Positions 3,332 to 13,155 are shown, counted from the first letter of the stretch. The stretch: 13,648 nt of DNA from a virus (UHGV-0343520); one strand, 5' to 3'. A program made the numbers and translations. The notes: generated from the letters alone by a model not told the origin.

Positions 3332-3760
3332 ATGGGTTTTCGTAGCGCATCAATTCTTACGTTGATTATTAGTGGGATTATTATCGGGTGCACTGATGCT
3401 GTATCGACAAATTATCATGACCGTACATCATATTACTCCGATAAAGCAATAGAGACACAGTATGTGAGTTCATCTGAACGTACTTCTGATGTTAGTGAGG
3501 ATATCCGTCTGTATGCCCATCAAATCAAGAGCGCCATCGAAAAACAGTTCGGGGATGCGAGTAAGTATTCAGGAAAAGAGTGTACACTGAGAATGCATAT
3601 GGCCCCGAATGGCCTTCTACTGGAGGTTAAAAGAGAAAGTGGAGACCTCGATTTATGTCGTGAAGCGATGAATGCGATAAAGAATGCTGATATACCTGCC
3701 CCCCCTTCGCCGGAAGTATATAAAGTATTTCAAAATGGGGTGCTGGATTTTAAACCCTGA
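3332..3760 (+). CDS. Lipoprotein with TolA C-terminal (domain III)-like domain
   Basis: 142 aa. N-terminal signal peptide with lipobox IIGC. The C-terminal ~85 aa (YAHQIKSAIEKQF...CTLRMHMAPNGLLLEVK...PPSPEVYKVFQNGVLDFKP) align closely with the recalled C-terminus of E. coli TolA (...YAGQIKSAIESKF...CTLRIKLAPDGMLLDIK...VFKNAPLDFKP). AT-rich with its own promoter. Confidence 0.8.
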   Translation: MGFRSASILTLIISGIIIGCTDAVSTNYHDRTSYYSDKAIETQYVSSSERTSDVSEDIRLYAHQIKSAIEKQFGDASKYSGKECTLRMHMAPNGLLLEVKRESGDLDLCREAMNAIKNADIPAPPSPEVYKVFQNGVLDFKP

Positions 3761-4453: not shown

Positions 4454-4557
4454 ATATTGCATCGTCTCCAGCATATATATCAATTAAGGCTCTGATTGAT
4501 GTGTCTGAAAGCCTACACATAATAACTATGCCATCCGTTCCGTGCGGAGGTGAGGCT

Positions 4558-4773
4558 ATGAAATCCATGGACAAAATTTCAACAGGCATTGCCTACGGCA
4601 CCTCCGCAGGCAGTGCTGGCTACTGGTTTTTACAGTTGCTCGATAGAGTAACTCCGTCACAGTGGGCTGCAATCGGTGTGCTGGGTAGTCTGGTATTTGG
4701 CCTGCTGACGTACCTGACAAACCTTTATTTCAAGATTAAAGAAGATAAGCGCAAGGCTGCGAGAGGTGAATAA
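4558..4773 (+). CDS. S: Pinholin, phage 21 S21 type (class II holin/antiholin with dual start)
   Basis: Translation [26 protein letters not shown]...[15 protein letters not shown] is near-identical to S21 as recalled. Dual-start motif M-K-S-M, with GGAGGTGA just upstream. Stop overlaps the endolysin start. Confidence 0.9.
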
Positions 4774-5270
4774 TGCCTCCATCATTACGAAAAGTCGTTG
4801 CTGCTGCTATTGGTGGCGGAGCAATTGCTATAGCATCAGTGTTAATCACTGGCCCAAGTGGTAACGATGGTCTGGAAGGTGTCAGCTACATACCATACAA
4901 AGATATTGTTGGTGTATGGACTGTATGTCACGGGCATACAGGAAAAGACATCATTCCCGGTAAAACGTATACCAAAGCAGAATGCAAAACACTCTTGAAT
5001 AAAGACCTTGCCACTGTCGCCAGACAAATTAACCCGTACATCAAAGTCGATATACCGGAAACAACGCGCGGCGCTCTTTACTCATTCGTTTACAACGTGG
5101 GTGCTGGCAATTTCAGAACATCGACGCTTCTTCGCAAAATAAACCAGGACGATATCAAAGGCGCATGTGATCAGCTACGTCGCTGGACATATGCTGGCGG
5201 TAAGCAATGGAAAGGTCTCATGACTCGTCGTGAGATTGAGCGTGAAATCTGTTTGTGGGGTCAGCAATGA
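4773..5270 (+). CDS. R: SAR endolysin (R21-type lysozyme with signal-anchor-release domain)
   Basis: 165 aa. N-terminal Gly/Ala-rich SAR domain ([18 protein letters not shown]) followed by a lysozyme catalytic region. Near-identical to phage 21 R as recalled. Confidence 0.92.
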
Positions 5271-5731
5271 ACAGAGTAACCGCGATTATCTCCGCTCTGG
5301 TTATCTGCATCATCGTCTGCCTGTCATGGGCTGTTAATCATTACCGTGATAACGCCATTACCTACAAAGCCCAGCGCGACAAAAATGCCAGAGAACTGAA
5401 GCTGGCGAACGCGGCAATTACTGACATGCAGATGCGTCAGCGTGATGTTGCTGCGCTCGATGCAAAATACACGAAGGAGTTAGCTGATGCGAAAGCTGAA
5501 AATGATGCTCTGCGTGATGATGTTGCCGCTGGTCGTCGTCGGTTGCACATCAAAGCAGTCTGTCAGTCAGTGCGTGAAGCCACCACCGCCTCCGGCGTGG
5601 ATAATGCAGCCTCCCCCCGACTGGCAGACACCGCTGAACGGGATTATTTCACCCTCCGGGAACGACTGGTAATGATGCAGGCCCAACTTGAAGGTGCTCA
5701 GCAATACATAACCGAGCAGTGTTTAAAGTAA
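5267..5731 (+). CDS. Rz: Rz, inner-membrane spanin (i-spanin)
   Basis: ATG at 5267 overlaps the endolysin stop. N-terminal transmembrane helix and coiled-coil periplasmic domain. Matches lambda Rz as recalled. Confidence 0.9.
5487..5672 (+). CDS. Rz1: Rz1, outer-membrane lipoprotein spanin (o-spanin), embedded in Rz in the +1 frame
   Basis: 61 aa. Lipobox VVGC and a proline-rich mature region ([16 protein letters not shown]). Matches lambda Rz1 and lies wholly inside Rz, the classic embedded architecture. Confidence 0.9.
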
Positions 5732-5868
5732 AATCTTAACTACAATATGATTCATTTTGATGATTGTTTCATAAGGAACAGTGAAGTAAGATCTAAGAGG
5801 AGTTAAATTTTATACAGTATAATCATAATATTGCAGCAAGGTGGTTATAATTGAAAGAATATTTAGAT

Positions 5869-7326
5869 ATGAATACATCTCATGTAAGAGTTGTTACTCA
5901 TATGTGTGGGTTCCTGGTTTGGCTCTATAGTCTTTCAATGTTGCCACCAATGGTTGTAGCATTGTTTTATAAAGAAAAAAGCCTGTTCGTTTTCTTTATA
6001 ACTTTCGTTATATTTTTTTGCATTGGTGGCGGAGCGTGGTATACAACTAAGAAATCTGGCATTCAATTACGTACCCGTGATGGGTTTATTATAATTGTAA
6101 TGTTTTGGATTTTGTTTTCTGTTATTAGTGCATTCCCTTTATGGATTGACTCAGAACTTAATTTAACGTTCATTGATGCTCTGTTTGAAGGGGTTTCTGG
6201 AATAACAACAACAGGAGCAACTGTAATTGATGATGTTAGTTCATTACCTCGGGCATATTTGTACTATCGGTCACAGTTAAATTTTATAGGTGGTTTAGGA
6301 GTTATTGTTCTGGCGGTTGCTGTATTGCCATTATTGGGTATTGGTGGTGCAAAGCTTTATCAGTCAGAAATGCCGGGGCCATTTAAGGATGACAAACTCA
6401 CTCCCCGCCTGGCCGATACGTCACGGACACTGTGGATAACTTATTCTTTATTAGGTATTGCTTGTATTGTCTGTTATAGACTTGCAGGAATGCCTTTGTT
6501 TGATGCTATTTGTCACGGGATTTCCACAGTTTCGCTTGGTGGTTTCTCAACTCATAGCGAGAGTATCGGATATTTTAATAACTATTTGGTTGAGCTGGTG
6601 GCTGGTTCTTTTTCCCTGCTATCGGCTTTCAACTTCACTCTTTGGTATATTGTTATTAGCAGGAAAACGATAAAACCTTTAATCAGAGATATTGAACTTC
6701 GTTTCTTTCTGTTAATAGCCTTAGGGGTGATCATTGTTACCTCTTTCCAGGTCTGGCATATAGGTATGTATGACTTGCATGGAAGTTTTATTCATTCGTT
6801 TTTTCTTGCCAGCTCCATGCTCACTGATAATGGTTTAGCTACGCAGGATTATGCAAGTTGGCCCACGCACACGATAGTGTTTTTGCTGTTGTCAAGTTTC
6901 TTTGGGGGATGTATAGGTTCAACTTGTGGTGGAATTAAGTCACTTCGATTTCTTATACTTTTCAAACAAAGCAAACACGAGATAAATCAGCTTTCTCATC
7001 CCAGAGCGTTGTTGAGTGTAAATGTAGGAGGGAAGATAGTTACAGATCGTGTAATGAGGTCTGTATGGAGTTTCTTTTTTCTTTATACTCTCTTCACGGT
7101 GTTTTTTATACTGGTGTTAAATGGTATGGGATATGATTTTCTTACATCATTTGCAACAGTGGCTGCATGTATTAATAATATGGGATTAGGTTTTGGGGCT
7201 ACTGCATCGTCATTCGGAGTGCTTAATGACATTGCAAAATGTTTAATGTGCATAGCTATGATTCTTGGTCGCCTTGAAATTTATCCTGTTATTATATTGT
7301 TTTCAGGTTTTTTTTGGCGCTCCTAA
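5869..7326 (+). CDS. trkG: TrkH/TrkG-family potassium uptake protein (prophage-borne)
   Basis: 485 aa from ATG 5869 (MNTSHVRV...). An in-frame TTG at 5851 with AGGTGG upstream is an alternative start. Multi-pass membrane protein with Gly-rich selectivity-filter-like segments (GITTTGAT, GIGGAK, LGGFSTH, STCGG). Strongly AT-rich relative to its neighbours. trkG is known to sit in the Rac prophage downstream of Rz/Rz1. Confidence 0.9.
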   Translation: MNTSHVRVVTHMCGFLVWLYSLSMLPPMVVALFYKEKSLFVFFITFVIFFCIGGGAWYTTKKSGIQLRTRDGFIIIVMFWILFSVISAFPLWIDSELNLTFIDALFEGVSGITTTGATVIDDVSSLPRAYLYYRSQLNFIGGLGVIVLAVAVLPLLGIGGAKLYQSEMPGPFKDDKLTPRLADTSRTLWITYSLLGIACIVCYRLAGMPLFDAICHGISTVSLGGFSTHSESIGYFNNYLVELVAGSFSLLSAFNFTLWYIVISRKTIKPLIRDIELRFFLLIALGVIIVTSFQVWHIGMYDLHGSFIHSFFLASSMLTDNGLATQDYASWPTHTIVFLLLSSFFGGCIGSTCGGIKSLRFLILFKQSKHEINQLSHPRALLSVNVGGKIVTDRVMRSVWSFFFLYTLFTVFFILVLNGMGYDFLTSFATVAACINNMGLGFGATASSFGVLNDIAKCLMCIAMILGRLEIYPVIILFSGFFWRS

Positions 7327-7463: not shown

Positions 7464-9179
7464 ATGAGCGAGAAATTAAAGATAGTCTATCGCCCATTAC
7501 AAGAATTGTCACCGTATGCGCACAACGCCAGGACGCACAGTACTGAGCAGGTGGCACAACTGGTAGAAAGTATTAAGCAATTCGGCTGGACTAATCCGGT
7601 GCTGATTGACGAAAAGGGCGAAATTATTGCGGGTCACGGTCGTGTTATGGCGGCTGAAATGCTCAAAATGGATTCTGTTCCGGTCATTGTTCTGTCTGGC
7701 CTGACGGATGAGCAGAAAAAGGCGTACCGCCTGGCAGATAATCGCCTGCCGATGAATGCTGGCTGGGATGAAGATCTGTTGCGGATGGAGCTGTCGGACC
7801 TAATCAATGCTGATTTTGATGTCTCCCTGACAGGCTTCATCCCGACAGAAATTGATGAACTGTTGACGGATGTTTTGCCCGGTACAGGAAATGAGGAGGA
7901 GCCGTATACGACGAAAATTGATACGCCTGTTTATGAGCCGTCGGGCGGTAAACCGGATATCAGTGAACTGTACGACGATACGAAAACTCAGGAGCTGATC
8001 AGCCGGATACGTTCGGCGTCCCTTGAGCCTGATATTGAGAAATTCCTCCTGTGTGCGGCAGAACGTCACACGGTGTTTAATTTCAGCAGAATTGCGGACT
8101 ATTACGCTCACGCCCCCGCTGAAATTCAGTGTTTTTTCGAGGAGTCGGCGCTGGTGATCATTGATTATCAGCAGGCTATTGAAAATGGATTTGTCCGGAT
8201 GACGCAGCGCATGGTGGAGATCATGCATGGTGGTGAGGAGGAGAATATGCGTGATGATTTTTGCGCCTTTATTCTGACTCACGGGCGACCGGACAAAGTT
8301 CTGACTTACCGGACGTTGCGTCGTGCTGGCTATACCGGGAAAATTTTTATCGTTGTTGATGATGAAGATAAGACACGGCATCAGTACATGGCTGAATTTG
8401 GTGAACAGGTGCTGGTGTTTTCCAAAGCCGATATCGCCAGTCGTTTTGACGAAGCCGATAATTTCTGTGACCGCCGCTCAATTTTTTACGCCCGTAATGC
8501 CTGTTTCGACCAGGCAAAACTGGTCGGGTGTAAATACTTCATTCAGCTCGATGATGATTATCACGAGTTCCAGTTTCGGGTGGATCGCAACTATGACCAG
8601 GCCTATTTTCCGATAAGGAAACTGGATGCGATCCTTTCTGAAATGCTGGCGTACTACGAATCAATACCTGCTCTTTCCATCGCTATGTCGCAGGGCGGGG
8701 ATTTTCTTGGTGACAATGGCGGCCATGCTTCGTGGGTGAAACGCAAGGCAATGAACAGCTTTATCTGTTCGGTTGATCGACCGTTCTCATTCATGGGGCG
8801 CATTAACGAGGATGTGAATACGTACACGAATCTCGGTCGCTGTGGTGAATTGTTTATGACGATCGGTGCTGTCCAGTTAGGGCAGAAACAGACGCAGAAA
8901 AACAGCGGCGGAATGACCGAGCTGTATCTGGATTCCGGAACCTACGTTAAAAGTTTTTACTCCGTCATGTATGCGCCGTCGTGCGTAAAAATCTCACTGA
9001 TGGGTGCCAGCCATAAACGCATTCACCATCAGGTCACCTGGAACAACGCTGCAGTAAAAATCCTTCACGAAAAATACAGGAAGAAGACACCCTGCATATC
9101 AATGGGGGTGACAAATGATTCCGTATTCGAAAGTCGAGTCTCTGGCAGCGTGCCGGATGACTGCACAACAAATCGCTGA
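7464..9179 (+). CDS. ParB/Srx-like N-terminal domain protein fused to a large uncharacterised C-terminal domain (not a recognisable methyltransferase; DxD-type motifs)
   Basis: 571 aa. The N-terminal ~130 aa (IVYRPLQELSPYAHNARTH...IIAGHGRVMAA...KKAYRLADN) is a typical ParB-like nuclease-domain module as found on phage DNA methyltransferases. The C-terminal ~430 aa has no DPPY/NPPY or FxGxG motifs but has acidic clusters (FIVVDDEDK, IQLDDDYHEF). Position between the lysis cassette and terminase is typical of phage ParB-fusion enzymes. Confidence 0.8.
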   Translation: MSEKLKIVYRPLQELSPYAHNARTHSTEQVAQLVESIKQFGWTNPVLIDEKGEIIAGHGRVMAAEMLKMDSVPVIVLSGLTDEQKKAYRLADNRLPMNAGWDEDLLRMELSDLINADFDVSLTGFIPTEIDELLTDVLPGTGNEEEPYTTKIDTPVYEPSGGKPDISELYDDTKTQELISRIRSASLEPDIEKFLLCAAERHTVFNFSRIADYYAHAPAEIQCFFEESALVIIDYQQAIENGFVRMTQRMVEIMHGGEEENMRDDFCAFILTHGRPDKVLTYRTLRRAGYTGKIFIVVDDEDKTRHQYMAEFGEQVLVFSKADIASRFDEADNFCDRRSIFYARNACFDQAKLVGCKYFIQLDDDYHEFQFRVDRNYDQAYFPIRKLDAILSEMLAYYESIPALSIAMSQGGDFLGDNGGHASWVKRKAMNSFICSVDRPFSFMGRINEDVNTYTNLGRCGELFMTIGAVQLGQKQTQKNSGGMTELYLDSGTYVKSFYSVMYAPSCVKISLMGASHKRIHHQVTWNNAAVKILHEKYRKKTPCISMGVTNDSVFESRVSGSVPDDCTTNR

Positions 9180-9366
9180 CGTTCTGGATGTTGATCTGAA
9201 CCGACTGAAAGAAAATCGGGAAGCAATGACAGATTTTTATGCGGCCATCCGTAAGGGCAGAGCGAAAGGTGAAGCCGAGTTACGAGCGGCATTGTTTAAG
9301 CTTGCCAGAAAAGGGGATGCCTTTGCTCTGCGCGAACTACTCAGGGTGGATAAAAATCAGGACTAA
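9115..9366 (+). CDS. Small hypothetical protein, possibly a helix-turn-helix DNA-binding protein preceding the terminase
   Basis: 83-aa ORF with GGGGGTGA upstream of ATG 9115. An alternative ATG lies at 9157. It overlaps the 3' end of the ParB-fusion ORF by 65 nt and ends 4 nt before the terminase small subunit start. Function not recognised. Confidence 0.45.
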   Translation: MIPYSKVESLAACRMTAQQIADVLDVDLNRLKENREAMTDFYAAIRKGRAKGEAELRAALFKLARKGDAFALRELLRVDKNQD

Positions 9367-9369
9367 CTG

Positions 9370-10464
9370 ATGAGCAGACCGGACTGGGGGGCGTTGCAGC
9401 AGGAGTATATTGCTGAATACACCCGCTCCGGTATATCTCCGGTGGCATGGTGTGAAGCAAGGGGACTGAATTACGCAACAGCCCGTCGTTACATCAAAAA
9501 AACTCCGAAAAATGCGCAGACAGAAATGTGCAAAACTGCGCAAAAAAGTGCGCAGAAAAAATCTGCGCAGACTGCACAAAAGCGGAACGAAAAATCTCAG
9601 GAAAAAAAGCCAGTATTCGATGCGGGCCTGAATGAGGGCGACGCGGAGGAATTTTCGTTCTGTCCCGATGAATTCGGCATTTCTGACCAGCAGGCTAAGT
9701 TTGCGATGCTTGTTGCTCAGGGTAAAAAGCCGACAGAGGCGTACCGACTAGCCGGTTATGAGGGGCAAGGTGCGACAGCTAACAGCAACGCCAGTCGTAT
9801 GCTTAGAAATGCCAGGGTTTTTCGCGCTATCAGCTACTTCCGCAATCAGTACCAGAAACGCTATACCGCAGACCTGGATTTACTAGTGAGTCAGTTGATG
9901 GCTATTGTCCTGGCCGACCCCAATCAGCTTGCACAATTTCGCCGTGTTAACTGCCGTTATTGCTGGGGCGAGAATCATCTCTACCAGTGGCGCGATATAG
10001 CAGAATTCGACAAGGCAGCGGCGCAGGCTTCCAGAGATGGCAAACCCGAACCGGAATATGGAGGCCTCGGCTTTGTTGATAACGCCATACCCAATCCGGA
10101 CTGCCCGAAGTGCTGCGGTGAGGGAACGGGACAGCTTTATATGGCTGATACCACTCTGCTTGATGGGGATGCGCGGCAATTATATGCAGGGGCAAAATTC
10201 GGAAAATTCGGCGTTGAGATCCTGCTGGAGGATAAGGCTGCCGCCCGGCGTGAATTGTTGCGTTTGTTTTCTGCTGGCGGGGCTTTATGTGCAGATAAAC
10301 GGCTACAGGAACTGGAAATTGAACGGCGCAGAATGGAAAACCAGAAGCTGCGCAAAGAGATCGAAACGGTGGAAGATAATGAACATCCCCAGCCTGTGGC
10401 GATCAATATTAATGTGGTTGATGCCAGAGTAAGGAGTGATGAAGATGATCTCTCCGACGCTTAA
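9370..10464 (+). CDS. Terminase small subunit (Terminase_2/P27-like core with N-terminal extension and C-terminal Cys-rich region)
   Basis: 364 aa. Central region (ISDQQAKFAMLVAQGKKPTEAYRLAGY...SRMLRNARV) is typical of P27-family small terminases. It lies immediately upstream of, and overlapping, the large subunit. Has an N-terminal HTH-like segment, a Lys/Gln-rich low-complexity repeat, and CxxC...CxxCC cysteines. Confidence 0.8.
   Translation: MSRPDWGALQQEYIAEYTRSGISPVAWCEARGLNYATARRYIKKTPKNAQTEMCKTAQKSAQKKSAQTAQKRNEKSQEKKPVFDAGLNEGDAEEFSFCPDEFGISDQQAKFAMLVAQGKKPTEAYRLAGYEGQGATANSNASRMLRNARVFRAISYFRNQYQKRYTADLDLLVSQLMAIVLADPNQLAQFRRVNCRYCWGENHLYQWRDIAEFDKAAAQASRDGKPEPEYGGLGFVDNAIPNPDCPKCCGEGTGQLYMADTTLLDGDARQLYAGAKFGKFGVEILLEDKAAARRELLRLFSAGGALCADKRLQELEIERRRMENQKLRKEIETVEDNEHPQPVAININVVDARVRSDEDDLSDA
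9513..9578 (+). repeat. Cluster of short direct repeats TGCGCA(G/A)A within the terminase small subunit gene
   Basis: TGCGCA occurs at 9513, 9537, 9549 and 9564, with variants TGTGCA (9527) and TGCACA (9573), all within ~65 bp. They encode the AQK-rich low-complexity peptide. Confidence 0.6.
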
Positions 10465-11746
10465 TGTGCCTCAGGCGCGATTTCTTTCAATGCCCCATAA
10501 ATTTAAAGCCTATATTGCTGGTTTTGGCTCGGGCAAAACATGGGTTGGGTGTGGCGGCATATGCAAGGGGATTTGGGAGCATCCAGGTATAAATCAGGGA
10601 TATTTTGCGCCAACGTATCCCCAAATTCGCGATATTTTTTACCCTACAGTGGAAGAAGTTGCTGCTGACTGGGGATTGAACGTAAAAATTAATGAGGGAA
10701 ATAAAGAGGTTCACTTTTATTACGGACGCCAGTATCGGGGAACCACTATCTGCAGATCGATGGAGAAGCCACAAACGATCGTCGGTTTCAAAATTGGTAA
10801 TGCGTTGGTGGATGAACTGGACATTTTGCCGAAGGAAAAAGCCAGAACGGCGTGGCGCAAGATAATTGCACGTATGCGTTATAAGATTGATGGACTTCGC
10901 AACGGTATTGACGTTACAACCACGCCGGAAGGATTCAAATTTGTCTACGAGCAGTTTGTTAAAGCCGTGCGTGAAAAAACAGAGCTGGCCTCACTGTATG
11001 GTCTGGTGCAGGCATCTACTTTCGATAATGAAAAGAACCTGCCAGCAGATTACATTCCTTCGCTTCTTGAATCATACCCTCCAGAGCTGATTAAAGCCTA
11101 TCTTCGAGGACAGTTTACTAACCTGACAAGTGGTACTGTTTACCATCAGTTTGACCGGAAACTGAATAATTGCGAAGAAGTGGAGCAGCCAGGGGAGCCG
11201 ATTTATATTGGGATGGATTTTAACGTTGGAAAGATGGCGGGAATCGTCCATGTGCTGCGTTTGGGGCTTCCATGTGCGGTAACTGAAATCATCAATGCCT
11301 ACGATACGCCGGATATGATCCGCATCATTAAAGAACGCTTCTGGCTGTATGATGGGAATGATTACCGGAAAGTGAGGGAAATTTATATTTATCCAGATGC
11401 TTCCGGGGATTCCAGAAAATCAAGTAACGCAAGTACGACGGATATAGCCCAGCTTAAGCAGGCTGGTTTTAACGTTGTGGTGAACAGCTCGAACCCGCCA
11501 GTAAAAGATCGCGTTAACTCAATGAATGCAATGTTCTGCAATGCCAATGGTGAGCGTCGCTATAAAGTTAATGTGAAGCGTTGCCCGTTATATGCCGAAT
11601 CTCTGGAGCAACAGGTCTGGGATGAGAAGGGGGAGCCTGATAAAAAATCTGGCAATGATCACCCGAATGATGCCGGAGGTTATTTCATCGTTAAGCAATT
11701 CCCTATTGTCAAACCGACCGGAAGAGTCACATCACTTCGGATTTAA
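10445..11746 (+). CDS. Terminase large subunit (ATPase/nuclease)
   Basis: Walker A motif AGFGSGKT near the N-terminus and acidic nuclease-domain motifs in the C-terminal half (YIGMDFNVG, YPDASGDS, NDHPNDAGG). ATG 10445 is 8 nt after AAGGAG (10431-10436). The ORF is open from GTG 10436. Overlaps the small subunit stop. Confidence 0.9.
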   Translation: MISPTLNVPQARFLSMPHKFKAYIAGFGSGKTWVGCGGICKGIWEHPGINQGYFAPTYPQIRDIFYPTVEEVAADWGLNVKINEGNKEVHFYYGRQYRGTTICRSMEKPQTIVGFKIGNALVDELDILPKEKARTAWRKIIARMRYKIDGLRNGIDVTTTPEGFKFVYEQFVKAVREKTELASLYGLVQASTFDNEKNLPADYIPSLLESYPPELIKAYLRGQFTNLTSGTVYHQFDRKLNNCEEVEQPGEPIYIGMDFNVGKMAGIVHVLRLGLPCAVTEIINAYDTPDMIRIIKERFWLYDGNDYRKVREIYIYPDASGDSRKSSNASTTDIAQLKQAGFNVVVNSSNPPVKDRVNSMNAMFCNANGERRYKVNVKRCPLYAESLEQQVWDEKGEPDKKSGNDHPNDAGGYFIVKQFPIVKPTGRVTSLRI

Positions 11747-11748
11747 TT

Positions 11749-13155
11749 ATGGCTGATATATCAACACCCAACCTCGACTATAACGATATGCTGGAGGCGT
11801 GGGATATTAACGACGCACTGATGGGCGGTACGCTTGAAATGCGCAGGCAGGGGGAAAATTATCTCCCAAAATGGCCTAACGAAGATGAAGACGCTTATAA
11901 AAAACGCCTGTCTGTGGCTACGCTACTTCCTGTGTATGAAGAAAGCATCAAGCAAAATATTGGGCGCATATTTGCAGAGCCGACAGTATTGAGTGAGGAA
12001 ACGCCGGCAAAAATCAGGGAATATGCAGAAAATATCGACATGGAGGGGAGCCGACTGGATGTGTGGGCGCAGCAATTTTTCAGCCTCGCATTTCAGTATG
12101 GTGTGGCACATGCGCTGGTGGACTATCCACGAACGGATATGAAAGAGATTCGGACAAAAGCCGATGAAAACGCGACCGGTGGTCGTCCGTACGTTACGAT
12201 GCTGAATCCACGCCAGGTTATTGGATGGAAATCGAAAGTTGAAAAAGGGAAAGTTGTTCTCACTGATTTGCGTATAAAAGAGGTCATCATTATTGATGGT
12301 GATGATTTCGGGCAGAAGAAGGTGGAGCAGATCCGCCATATTATGCCCCGTCGAGTTGAAATTTATCGACGTAGCGAAGGCACTAATGGCGAATCTGTCT
12401 GGACGCTTCATGAGTCATGGAATACCAGCCGTGATGATATTCCTCTGGTAACACTGTACACGAAGAAAACAGGATTTATGCGTGGTACACCGCCATTGCT
12501 TAATCTTGGCTTGCTGAATATCAAGCACTGGCAAAGCCAGAGCGAGCAGGACAATATTCTTCATGTTGCCCGCGTTCCATTGCTGGTGGCCTACGGGCTG
12601 GACAGGAATGAAGAACTGACGGTTGGTGCATCCACCGCTACGATTTTTGAGGACAGAACAAAAAATGGCCTCGAATATGTTGAACATAGTGGCGCAGCGA
12701 TAGAATCTGGCGAAACATCACTTGAGAAGCTGGAAAATCAGATGCGTCATGCCGGCGCTAAACTTCTGCGTGCTGAAAATACATCCACCAAATCTGTTGA
12801 TCAGACTAATGAAGAGCGAATGCAGGAAAACTCGCCGCTTTATACAATGGCGAACTCCCTCGAAGATGCCCTCGATAATATTCTCCAGATAATGGCGGAA
12901 TGGATCGGAGAGAGTTGCGGTGGCAATGTGGATGTGCGCACTGAACTGGATGTATCTGCCCAGGTGTTTGACTCATCCTCCGCGCTGGCTGTTCAGTCAT
13001 TGCGTCAGGGCGGTGATATACGTCAGATTGATGCGGTTCGGGTGTTGCAGGCGTTGAAATTTATCGATCAGGATTCCCGTCCAGAGGAAGTGATCGATGA
13101 ATTAAAAAATCAGAGTGTAATGCTGATGGAAATCAATGATGCAAACCGTGAATGA
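11749..13155 (+). CDS. Portal protein
   Basis: 468-aa ORF immediately after the large terminase and before a head-morphogenesis-like gene. Size and acidic C-terminus are consistent with a portal. Family not confirmed by search. Confidence 0.75.
   Translation: MADISTPNLDYNDMLEAWDINDALMGGTLEMRRQGENYLPKWPNEDEDAYKKRLSVATLLPVYEESIKQNIGRIFAEPTVLSEETPAKIREYAENIDMEGSRLDVWAQQFFSLAFQYGVAHALVDYPRTDMKEIRTKADENATGGRPYVTMLNPRQVIGWKSKVEKGKVVLTDLRIKEVIIIDGDDFGQKKVEQIRHIMPRRVEIYRRSEGTNGESVWTLHESWNTSRDDIPLVTLYTKKTGFMRGTPPLLNLGLLNIKHWQSQSEQDNILHVARVPLLVAYGLDRNEELTVGASTATIFEDRTKNGLEYVEHSGAAIESGETSLEKLENQMRHAGAKLLRAENTSTKSVDQTNEERMQENSPLYTMANSLEDALDNILQIMAEWIGESCGGNVDVRTELDVSAQVFDSSSALAVQSLRQGGDIRQIDAVRVLQALKFIDQDSRPEEVIDELKNQSVMLMEINDANRE

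Follow-up and report, generated by a model that had tools for sequence, protein, structure and literature searches.

The window analysed here is a 13,648-nucleotide (nt) stretch of viral DNA (UHGV-0343520) corresponding to the late region of a siphovirus-type, Rac-family lambdoid prophage of Escherichia coli. The gene terS, located on the plus strand at positions 9370–10464, encodes the small terminase subunit (TerS), a protein of 364 amino acid residues (aa). Residues 122–321 of TerS match the Pfam family Terminase_2 (PF03592; 34.5 bits against a gathering cut-off of 26.1, E = 3.7e-8), and the protein also matches PHROG 51 (E = 1.7e-75). The 5′ part of terS contains an array of six TGCGCA-type hexamers with A-rich spacers, which spans positions 9513–9578 (terS nt 144–209, codons 48–70). 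This array is probably the part of a packaging-initiation (pac) site that is recognised by TerS.

Hexamer 1 (TGCGCA, 9513–9518) is read as aaT-GCG-CAg and encodes N-A-Q. Hexamer 2 is the variant TGTGCA (9527–9532), which lies in another frame, aTG-TGC-Aaa, and encodes M-C-K. Hexamers 3 (9537–9542, T-A-Q), 4 (9549–9554, S-A-Q) and 5 (9564–9569, S-A-Q) are all TGCGCA, and hexamer 6 is the variant TGCACA (9573–9578, T-A-Q). The starts of consecutive hexamers are 14, 10, 12, 15 and 9 base pairs (bp) apart, roughly one hexamer per helical turn. The initial annotation had described four exact and two one-mismatch copies within this span, and the description is accurate in every detail; the (G/A)A that it placed after TGCGCA follows all six copies. 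The array starts 12 nt past the end of the codons for …RYIK and codes for the peptide NAQTEMCKTAQKSAQKKSAQTAQK, part of a Lys/Gln/Ala-rich stretch.

The hexamers are clustered far beyond chance. The array holds four of the ten exact TGCGCA copies found in the whole 13,648-bp window. In 2000 dinucleotide-preserving shuffles of the window, four copies per 60 bp were never reached and three copies were reached three times; four copies were also reached in none of 5000 shuffles of the local A-rich stretch 9480–9620. The densest 80-bp bin of the window contains six sites with at most one mismatch, compared with 0.53 expected. Tandem Repeats Finder reports arrays with periods of 12 and 36 at 9508–9581. 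A lone exact TGCGCA is also present at 10349–10354 (terS nt 980), and it occupies the same position in the Shigella (L013) and E. ruysiae (L014) loci.

TerS appears to be composed of three parts. The segment 9370–9501 (plus strand) encodes a PacA-like N-terminal helix–turn–helix (HTH) domain, residues 1–44, with the recognition helix …NYATARRYIK; this domain is the proposed reader of the hexamers. The Lys/Gln/Ala-rich linker (residues 45–94) is encoded by 9502–9651 on the same strand and holds the array. AlphaFold2 predicts three helices for residues 1–44, with a per-residue confidence score (pLDDT) of 72–82, a disordered linker with pLDDT below 50 and the HTH of the Terminase_2 core at residues 99–160 with pLDDT 77–90; the model is good only for residues 1–44 and 99–160. 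The predicted disorder of residues 45–94 fits the earlier suggestion that the linker tolerates the repeats. The N-terminal domain has sub-threshold matches to transposase-type HTH domains, and a sequence search of the PDB with TerS gave nothing significant. The Terminase_2 core has an insert (window 9950–10130, residues ~195–250) with a CxxC…CxxC arrangement (C195–C198 and C245–C248) that looks like a zinc ribbon, in a region where the confidence of the AlphaFold2 model is poor.

The array was compared among 164 related loci: 85 from one-genome-per-species contigs and phage records and 79 from IMG/VR. Eighty loci were fetched from one-genome-per-species contigs of Enterobacterales, Vibrio and Aeromonas, and 80 IMG/VR loci were fetched out of more than 579 matching stretches. 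In the 164 loci, the array follows a conserved 44-residue N-terminal HTH domain. Distant TerS proteins with 36–43% identity, encoded by Klebsiella, Yersinia and Providencia phages and by E. coli phage PHB10, have only the first ~44 residues in common with the window protein, and each of their genes carries an array of short motifs directly after the N-terminal domain. Loci with the helix A-R-RYIK contain, within 150 nt after the helix, a mean of 4.83 TGCGCA copies (72 loci) or, for the 73 IMG/VR loci, 4.96 copies with a minimum of four. The density of TGCGCA is 30.9 per kb in the array region, compared with 0.58 per kb in the remaining parts of these loci. Both variant hexamers of the window are exact TGCGCA in other E. 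coli strains, and the consensus at all six positions is TGCGCA. Hexamer 2 is TGCGCA in most close relatives, where it is read as (M/V/L)-R-K (for example, ATG-CGC-AAA), so that the residue varies and the hexamer is kept. Hexamer 6 is TGCGCA in STEC306, in the Shigella locus and in many IMG/VR relatives.

Whether DNA or peptide is conserved can be judged from codon usage. The hexamer is found in all three reading frames (254, 72 and 22 copies), encoding x-A-Q/H, (M/L/V)-R-x and C-A, respectively. Synonymous resampling of the same peptides yields 36.4 ± 5.4 TGCGCA copies, while 356 are observed, an approximately ten-fold excess; for the window alone, 0.38 copies are expected against the four observed, and none of 1000 resamples reached four. 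The alanine of the linker A-(Q/H) unit is encoded by GCG in 266 of 287 cases (93%), compared with 26% elsewhere in the same open reading frames (ORFs), and the wobble base before the hexamer alanine is T in 271 of 287 cases (94%) against 24% elsewhere. The base following the hexamer is free (CAA 145, CAG 113). The synonymous codons of the conserved residues G7, P24, A38 and R40 of the adjacent domain are scrambled, which indicates that the loci are saturated at neutral sites; because the synonymous sites of the hexamers are nevertheless fixed, the hexamers are held by selection on DNA. The array is thus under purifying selection at the DNA level and is not a by-product of the peptide, and the comparison of DNA-level with protein-level conservation in homologues, proposed in the initial annotation, gives a clear answer in favour of DNA.

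Several decayed or rearranged loci were encountered. In Vibrio salinus (L089 2501–3000), terS is decayed, with a 71-aa ORF followed by frameshifts, and retains twelve TGCGCA copies in two groups (nt 131–187 and 314–460); the gene downstream is not recognisable as a terminase gene. This locus may represent a remnant, or else an element of satellite type that has retained a pac signal. In LT-II toxin prophages (Rac-SA53, L001 2912–3940; also L005 1412–2440), the N-terminal domain of TerS has been replaced through a deletion fusion. Three of the five remaining hexamers of the Rac-SA53 and CFIA fusion genes are mutated (TTCGCA, TGCGCT and TGCCCA), a pattern that fits relaxed selection after loss of the reader. 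The homology of the LT-II loci to the window begins at 9522, inside the array. An interpretation of the array as a mosaic recombination joint was considered and rejected: the Rac-SA53 record is annotated as a deletion fusion, and in phage vB_Apl-pPE4 the swap covers the N-terminal domain and the linker together.

The hexamer changes together with the recognition helix. All 145 loci with A-R-RYIK (72 + 73) possess TGCGCA, and TGCGAA is practically absent from them. None of the 19 loci with A-K-RYIK (13 + 6) has TGCGCA; they possess TGCGAA(T) and its inverse TTCGCA instead, often as the palindrome TGCGAATTCGCA. When the loci are clustered on the rest of the domain, those of the K type are scattered among those of the R type, at up to 97% identity. 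The TerS cores downstream differ widely in length and family, which means that the N-terminal domain and the array behave as one cassette. The phage vB_Apl-pPE4 (L006 2207–3298; also L099) combines an unrelated N-terminal HTH with the TerS core of the window (83% identity from residue 91 onwards); two copies of GTTTCCAC and two of the inverted GTGGAAA(G/C) are present at the same place, in the DNA coding for its linker. A search for more relatives of the pPE4-type N-terminal domain gave one identical copy and two weak matches only, so this case stays anecdotal. Over 590 bp, the DNA of the pPE4 record is 93% identical to that of the E. coli prophage, an unexpected finding given that Actinobacillus is the recorded host. 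A distant TerS-like gene in an IMG/VR contig (3300024040_000027; L101, ~1290–1420) has a different N-terminal HTH, ‘DW…’, followed by four copies of CTAAGC, one of which is shifted to another frame. Hexamer arrays placed within a gene behind an HTH may thus extend beyond the TerS family of the window.

The nearest experimentally studied counterpart of the array is pac of phage P1. A tblastn search with the N-terminal domain also matched the N-terminus of PacA of the P1-like phage D6. A tblastn search with D6 PacA as a bridge to P1 found D6 itself only, and profile comparison was used instead: hhalign aligned the N-terminal domain profile over 41–46 columns to D6 PacA with 98% probability (E = 1.5e-13) and to P1 PacA with 91% (E = 1e-6). 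P1 PacA …NPNTARRYLR aligns to …NYATARRYIK of the window. The homology to PacA is confined to the N-terminal 41–46 residues; the rest of TerS is Terminase_2 and is unlike PacA.

The pac site of P1 is a 161-bp region within pacA containing seven TGATCA/G hexamers in two groups, HEX4 and HEX3 (Sternberg and Coulby 1987, Skorupski et al. 1994, via PMC10028697). In the annotated P1 record, TGATCA is found at pacA nt 194, 201, 213 and 228 (first cluster, to 233) and TGATCG/A at nt 324, 336 and 347 (second cluster, to 352); the hexamers lie on both sides of the IHF site and of the cleavage positions, which were mapped to pacA nt 276–285. Synonymous mutation of the P1 hexamers lowers genome packaging approximately nine-fold (PMC10028697). 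In both P1 and the window, an array of 6-bp TG..CA palindromes occupies the 5′ part of the gene for the terminase recognition subunit, just downstream of a homologous segment encoding the N-terminal HTH, and in P1, as in the relatives of the window, the hexamers are placed in more than one reading frame.

There are also clear differences. The hexamer is TGATCA/G in P1 and TGCGCA in the window, and the array begins ~65 nt after the HTH in P1 but 8–14 nt after it here. In the window, the PacA-like HTH is followed by a Terminase_2 core instead of the remainder of PacA. PacB of P1 matches no Pfam family, whereas the large terminase subunit (TerL) of the window is composed of Terminase_6N and Terminase_6C. 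P1 is a plasmid myovirus, while the window belongs to a lambdoid siphovirus-type prophage. A second cluster of hexamers was not found in the window; there are scattered one-mismatch hexamers only, and the next exact TGCGCA is 780 bp away. Of 71 TGCGCA-type loci, 26, mostly with a Klebsiella-type core, resemble P1 in carrying two to four further hexamers clustered ~160 nt downstream. One Klebsiella-type TerS gene (L009 1501–2505) has six TGCGCA copies at nt 138–201 and three at nt 360–403, in a layout resembling HEX4 and HEX3. By analogy with P1, the two-cluster layout of the Klebsiella type suggests that cleavage may take place between the clusters.

The Shiga toxin (Stx)-converting phages supply a further comparison. 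In 933W-like Stx phages (for example, phi24B with its sterm gene), the N-terminal domain is homologous to that of the window at 53% identity and has the helix ARTRIK; ~230 Stx-phage records were matched. Their terS gene, as in the Stx2 phage phi24B (L093 1501–2307), contains four copies of (C/T)GATCAT at nt 142–178 with an exact 12-bp period, coding for IDHE-IDHK-TDHE-IDHD, and the four GATCs of this array are the only GATC sites in the gene. The Stx-phage array is a candidate P1-like pac array that might be methylated by Dam; no published pac assignment for 933W-like Stx phages was found among the papers searched. These phages differ from the window in the GATC-containing, P1-like hexamer, in the helix and in the TerS core. 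The Stx hexamer, like TGCGCA and TGATCA, is a 6-bp palindrome with TG and CA at its ends or GATC at its centre, and all three are found in corresponding positions with respect to a homologous domain.

Other pac systems are less similar. The TerS (G1P) of SPP1/SF6 and that of the window have a Terminase_2 core with its own HTH in common; the window differs in having a PacA-like HTH before that of Terminase_2, with the repeats placed in the linker-coding DNA between the two. The pac site of SPP1/SF6 (pacL and pacR around pacC) partly overlaps the small terminase gene and combines short repeated boxes with bent, A-rich DNA and headful packaging. No pair of boxes resembling pacL and pacR was noticed here, though no search aimed at one was made. 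The pac site of P22 is a single asymmetric site of ~22 bp within the central part of gene 3. It belongs to the coding sequence of the small terminase and is inactivated by mutations at wobble positions (PMC11260489). P22 has a single non-repeated site and a TerS without such an N-terminal HTH, whereas the window has a hexamer array and a Terminase_2 TerS that is not gp3-like. Of the four precedents named in the initial annotation, P1 alone is a real structural parallel; SPP1 is comparable only in its Terminase_2 family, and P22 has a single asymmetric site. The virion-mapped pac peak of Gally, a P22-like prophage of LF82, was considered and found not to be applicable, the TerS of this prophage being an unrelated protein of 140 aa.

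Taken together, the data from sequence comparison make it likely, at a probability of about 0.7, that the array at 9513–9578 is the TerS-recognition part of a pac site following the plan of P1 pac with a different hexamer. The proposal of a candidate pac recognition site within terS, made initially for the window alone, is hence supported by the conservation in relatives, the use of three frames, the fixed synonymous sites, the co-variation with the HTH and the homology to PacA. In comparison with P1 pac, the variant features are the absence of a Dam site, the single array and a Terminase_2 TerS working with a T4-type TerL.

The packaging could proceed as follows. The three-helix HTH of TerS (residues 1–44) would be tethered by the disordered, Lys-rich linker of ~50 residues to the oligomerising Terminase_2 core, and phage DNA, whether concatemeric or still integrated, could be bound at several of its hexamers by several N-terminal domains of one TerS oligomer. 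The complex of TerS and the array would recruit TerL, presumed to be both nuclease and motor, which would cut nearby and start headful packaging. By analogy only, packaging would probably run rightwards, towards terL and the head genes. Headful packaging is proposed because TerL belongs to Terminase_6N/6C. We infer the binding of the N-terminal domain to the hexamers, the place of cleavage, the headful mode and the direction from these comparisons.

A number of observations weigh against this interpretation. The hhalign match to P1 PacA itself is moderate (91%, E = 1e-6). There is no GATC between 9197 and 10217 and, since the window hexamers contain none, the control of P1 packaging by Dam methylation cannot apply. 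The window-type loci (the window and L013–L016) have a single array, while P1 has clusters of four and three around the IHF and cleavage region, and with a single array the cut site cannot be placed. The helix of P1 PacA also has ARRY, yet the P1 hexamers are TGATCA, so something besides the helix must help to determine the hexamer. Residue 39 is encoded only ~25 nt from the array, and the perfect association between R or K and the hexamer could partly represent the linkage of two old alleles and not recognition. The self-complementary hexamers also yield stable RNA hairpins. A literature search gave no mapped virion ends for any phage with this TerS, a Yersinia phage paper gives no termini, and the near-identical ‘phages’ vB_EcoS-606R9 and its relatives are prophages predicted by PHASTER and not virion DNA. 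Finally, strain ECCHD184 has a terS and upstream ORF 100% identical to those of the window (1,350-bp query, window 9115–10464), and the tape-measure gene of its prophage is cut by an insertion sequence, which means that the window prophage is possibly defective. The window prophage itself may form no infectious particles, though its terS, terL and portal genes are intact within the window.

Among the alternatives, a protein-binding site with a role outside packaging, either an operator of the terminase operon bound by TerS or another phage protein or an antisense terminator, seems unlikely. The DNA-level selection and the co-variation with the HTH do show that the array behaves as a binding site but do not in themselves show packaging. 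When the minus strand is scored, the hexamers together with T-runs come out as terminator-like hairpins at 9569–9549 and 9580–9562; four terminator-like sites are present in 9000–10000, compared with 1.2 expected, and two of them lie within the array. These hairpins are probably a by-product of palindromes with A-rich spacers. The reader domain, however, belongs to the small terminase and is a homologue of PacA, whose hexamers at the same gene position constitute an experimentally defined pac site. In addition, no promoter-like site was found near the array, and the N-terminal domain and array are always fused to a TerS core, though the cores differ.

An element acting at the RNA level, in which hairpins of the terS mRNA would adjust its translation, its stability or the pausing of ribosomes between the two TerS domains, is quite improbable. 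The array region does fold better than shuffled sequences (–29.8 kcal/mol, z = –4.5 for the window; z = –4.7 for a Klebsiella phage), and the other motifs (TGCGAAT/ATTCGCA, GTTTCCAC/GTGGAAAC and those containing GATC) are also palindromic or present in inverted form. The extra folding energy is, however, an automatic result of the repetition of a GC-rich palindrome, which counts against a role of RNA. One exact sequence is kept across genera, and pairing is not maintained via compensatory changes; the K-type arrays hold more direct than inverted copies (3.5 against 1.7). Furthermore, the hexamer changes together with a protein residue, no Rfam match was obtained and the hexamers of P1 are known to function at the level of DNA (PMC10028697).

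A low-complexity coding repeat, in which a K-(T/S)-A-Q unit was duplicated by slippage and the DNA repeats are a functionless by-product of a flexible linker, fits the arrays of period 12 and 36 and the repetitive, predicted disordered peptide but can hardly be credited, as the hexamer is kept in three frames coding for different peptides, its synonymous sites are 93–94% fixed beside scrambled neighbouring conserved codons (a scrambling that also means that the loci are not very recent copies of each other, which would have revived this explanation), the excess over synonymous resampling is ten-fold, the flanking residues vary (M/V/L) around a constant hexamer and the arrays persist in the decayed Vibrio locus after loss of the reading frame.

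Beyond the assignment of the array as the TerS-recognition part of a pac site, we lean, somewhat above even odds, towards regarding it as one case of a portable, ‘self-addressed’ packaging cassette, in which a PacA-like HTH and the hexamers that it reads are encoded immediately next to each other and move together between unrelated TerS cores. The array would then double as the coding sequence of the HTH domain's own linker. The cores served by such a cassette would include the Rac-type and Klebsiella-type Terminase_2 cores, the core of the Stx phages and PacA of P1 and D6, and a very small number of changes would suffice to switch the specificity, for instance R39K together with the transition from TGCGCA to TGCGAA.

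The neighbourhood of terS is that of a late operon. Gene terL (10436–11746, plus strand; Terminase_6N and Terminase_6C) encodes a T4-type large terminase subunit, the partner here of a Terminase_2 TerS, and is followed by the gene of the portal protein (11749–13155, plus strand; DUF4055, PHROG 145). The nearest phage relatives of terL are Jersey-like, HK578-like and K1G-like siphoviruses, which are described as headful packagers. Upstream, the lysis genes encode an S21-type holin (4501–4773), a lysozyme (4773–5270) and Rz (5255–5731). The terS region is found in 906 of 5,426 complete E. coli genomes at 89–100% identity.

A small ORF precedes terS on the plus strand (9115–9366, 70–83 aa). It matches the middle part of another small-terminase family (PHROG 309, E = 8e-23, profile positions 145–218 of 319) and could encode a second TerS-like protein or an accessory DNA-packaging protein, or be a remnant. 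Before it lies a 571-aa ORF (7464–9179, plus strand), in which a ParB N-terminal domain (PF02195) is joined to a TET-associated glycosyltransferase domain (PF20691, E = 7e-34). RefSeq labels copies of this ORF as a fragment of a ynaK pseudogene together with a protein termed ‘GREB1-related’ or hypothetical. The window showed no TET/JBP gene; a role of this ORF in DNA modification near the packaging genes is possible. The operon also carries two host-like cargo genes: trkG (5851–7326; potassium uptake), with Rz on one side and the ParB-like gene on the other, and, upstream of the lysis genes, a gene (3332–3760) for a 142-aa protein with a TolA C-terminal domain.

To our knowledge, pac sites are experimentally known for only a handful of phages, and for most headful phages they are unpredictable from sequence. 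The pac site of ES18, for example, is still unknown (PMC11260489). The array at 9513–9578 ties a very common family of E. coli prophages to the proven pac architecture of P1, and the same link takes in relatives across Enterobacterales, Vibrio and Aeromonas, as well as Stx-converting phages. It offers a simple rule for reading sequence, in which a PacA-like HTH at the N-terminus is succeeded by a hexamer array within the gene. Should this rule be right, the start of packaging would be predictable, and hence also the chromosomal regions exposed to lateral transduction beside these prophages. The hexamers would also provide short, portable packaging signals for phagemid and transduction tools, and the pairs R39/TGCGCA and K39/TGCGAA would be a natural recognition code for studying how small terminases read DNA. 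If the cassette interpretation holds as well, a large set of enterobacterial prophages, including those of about 900 of the 5,426 complete E. coli genomes with this terS and the 933W-like Stx phages, could have their pac sites, and thereby the origins and direction of lateral transduction, read from sequence.

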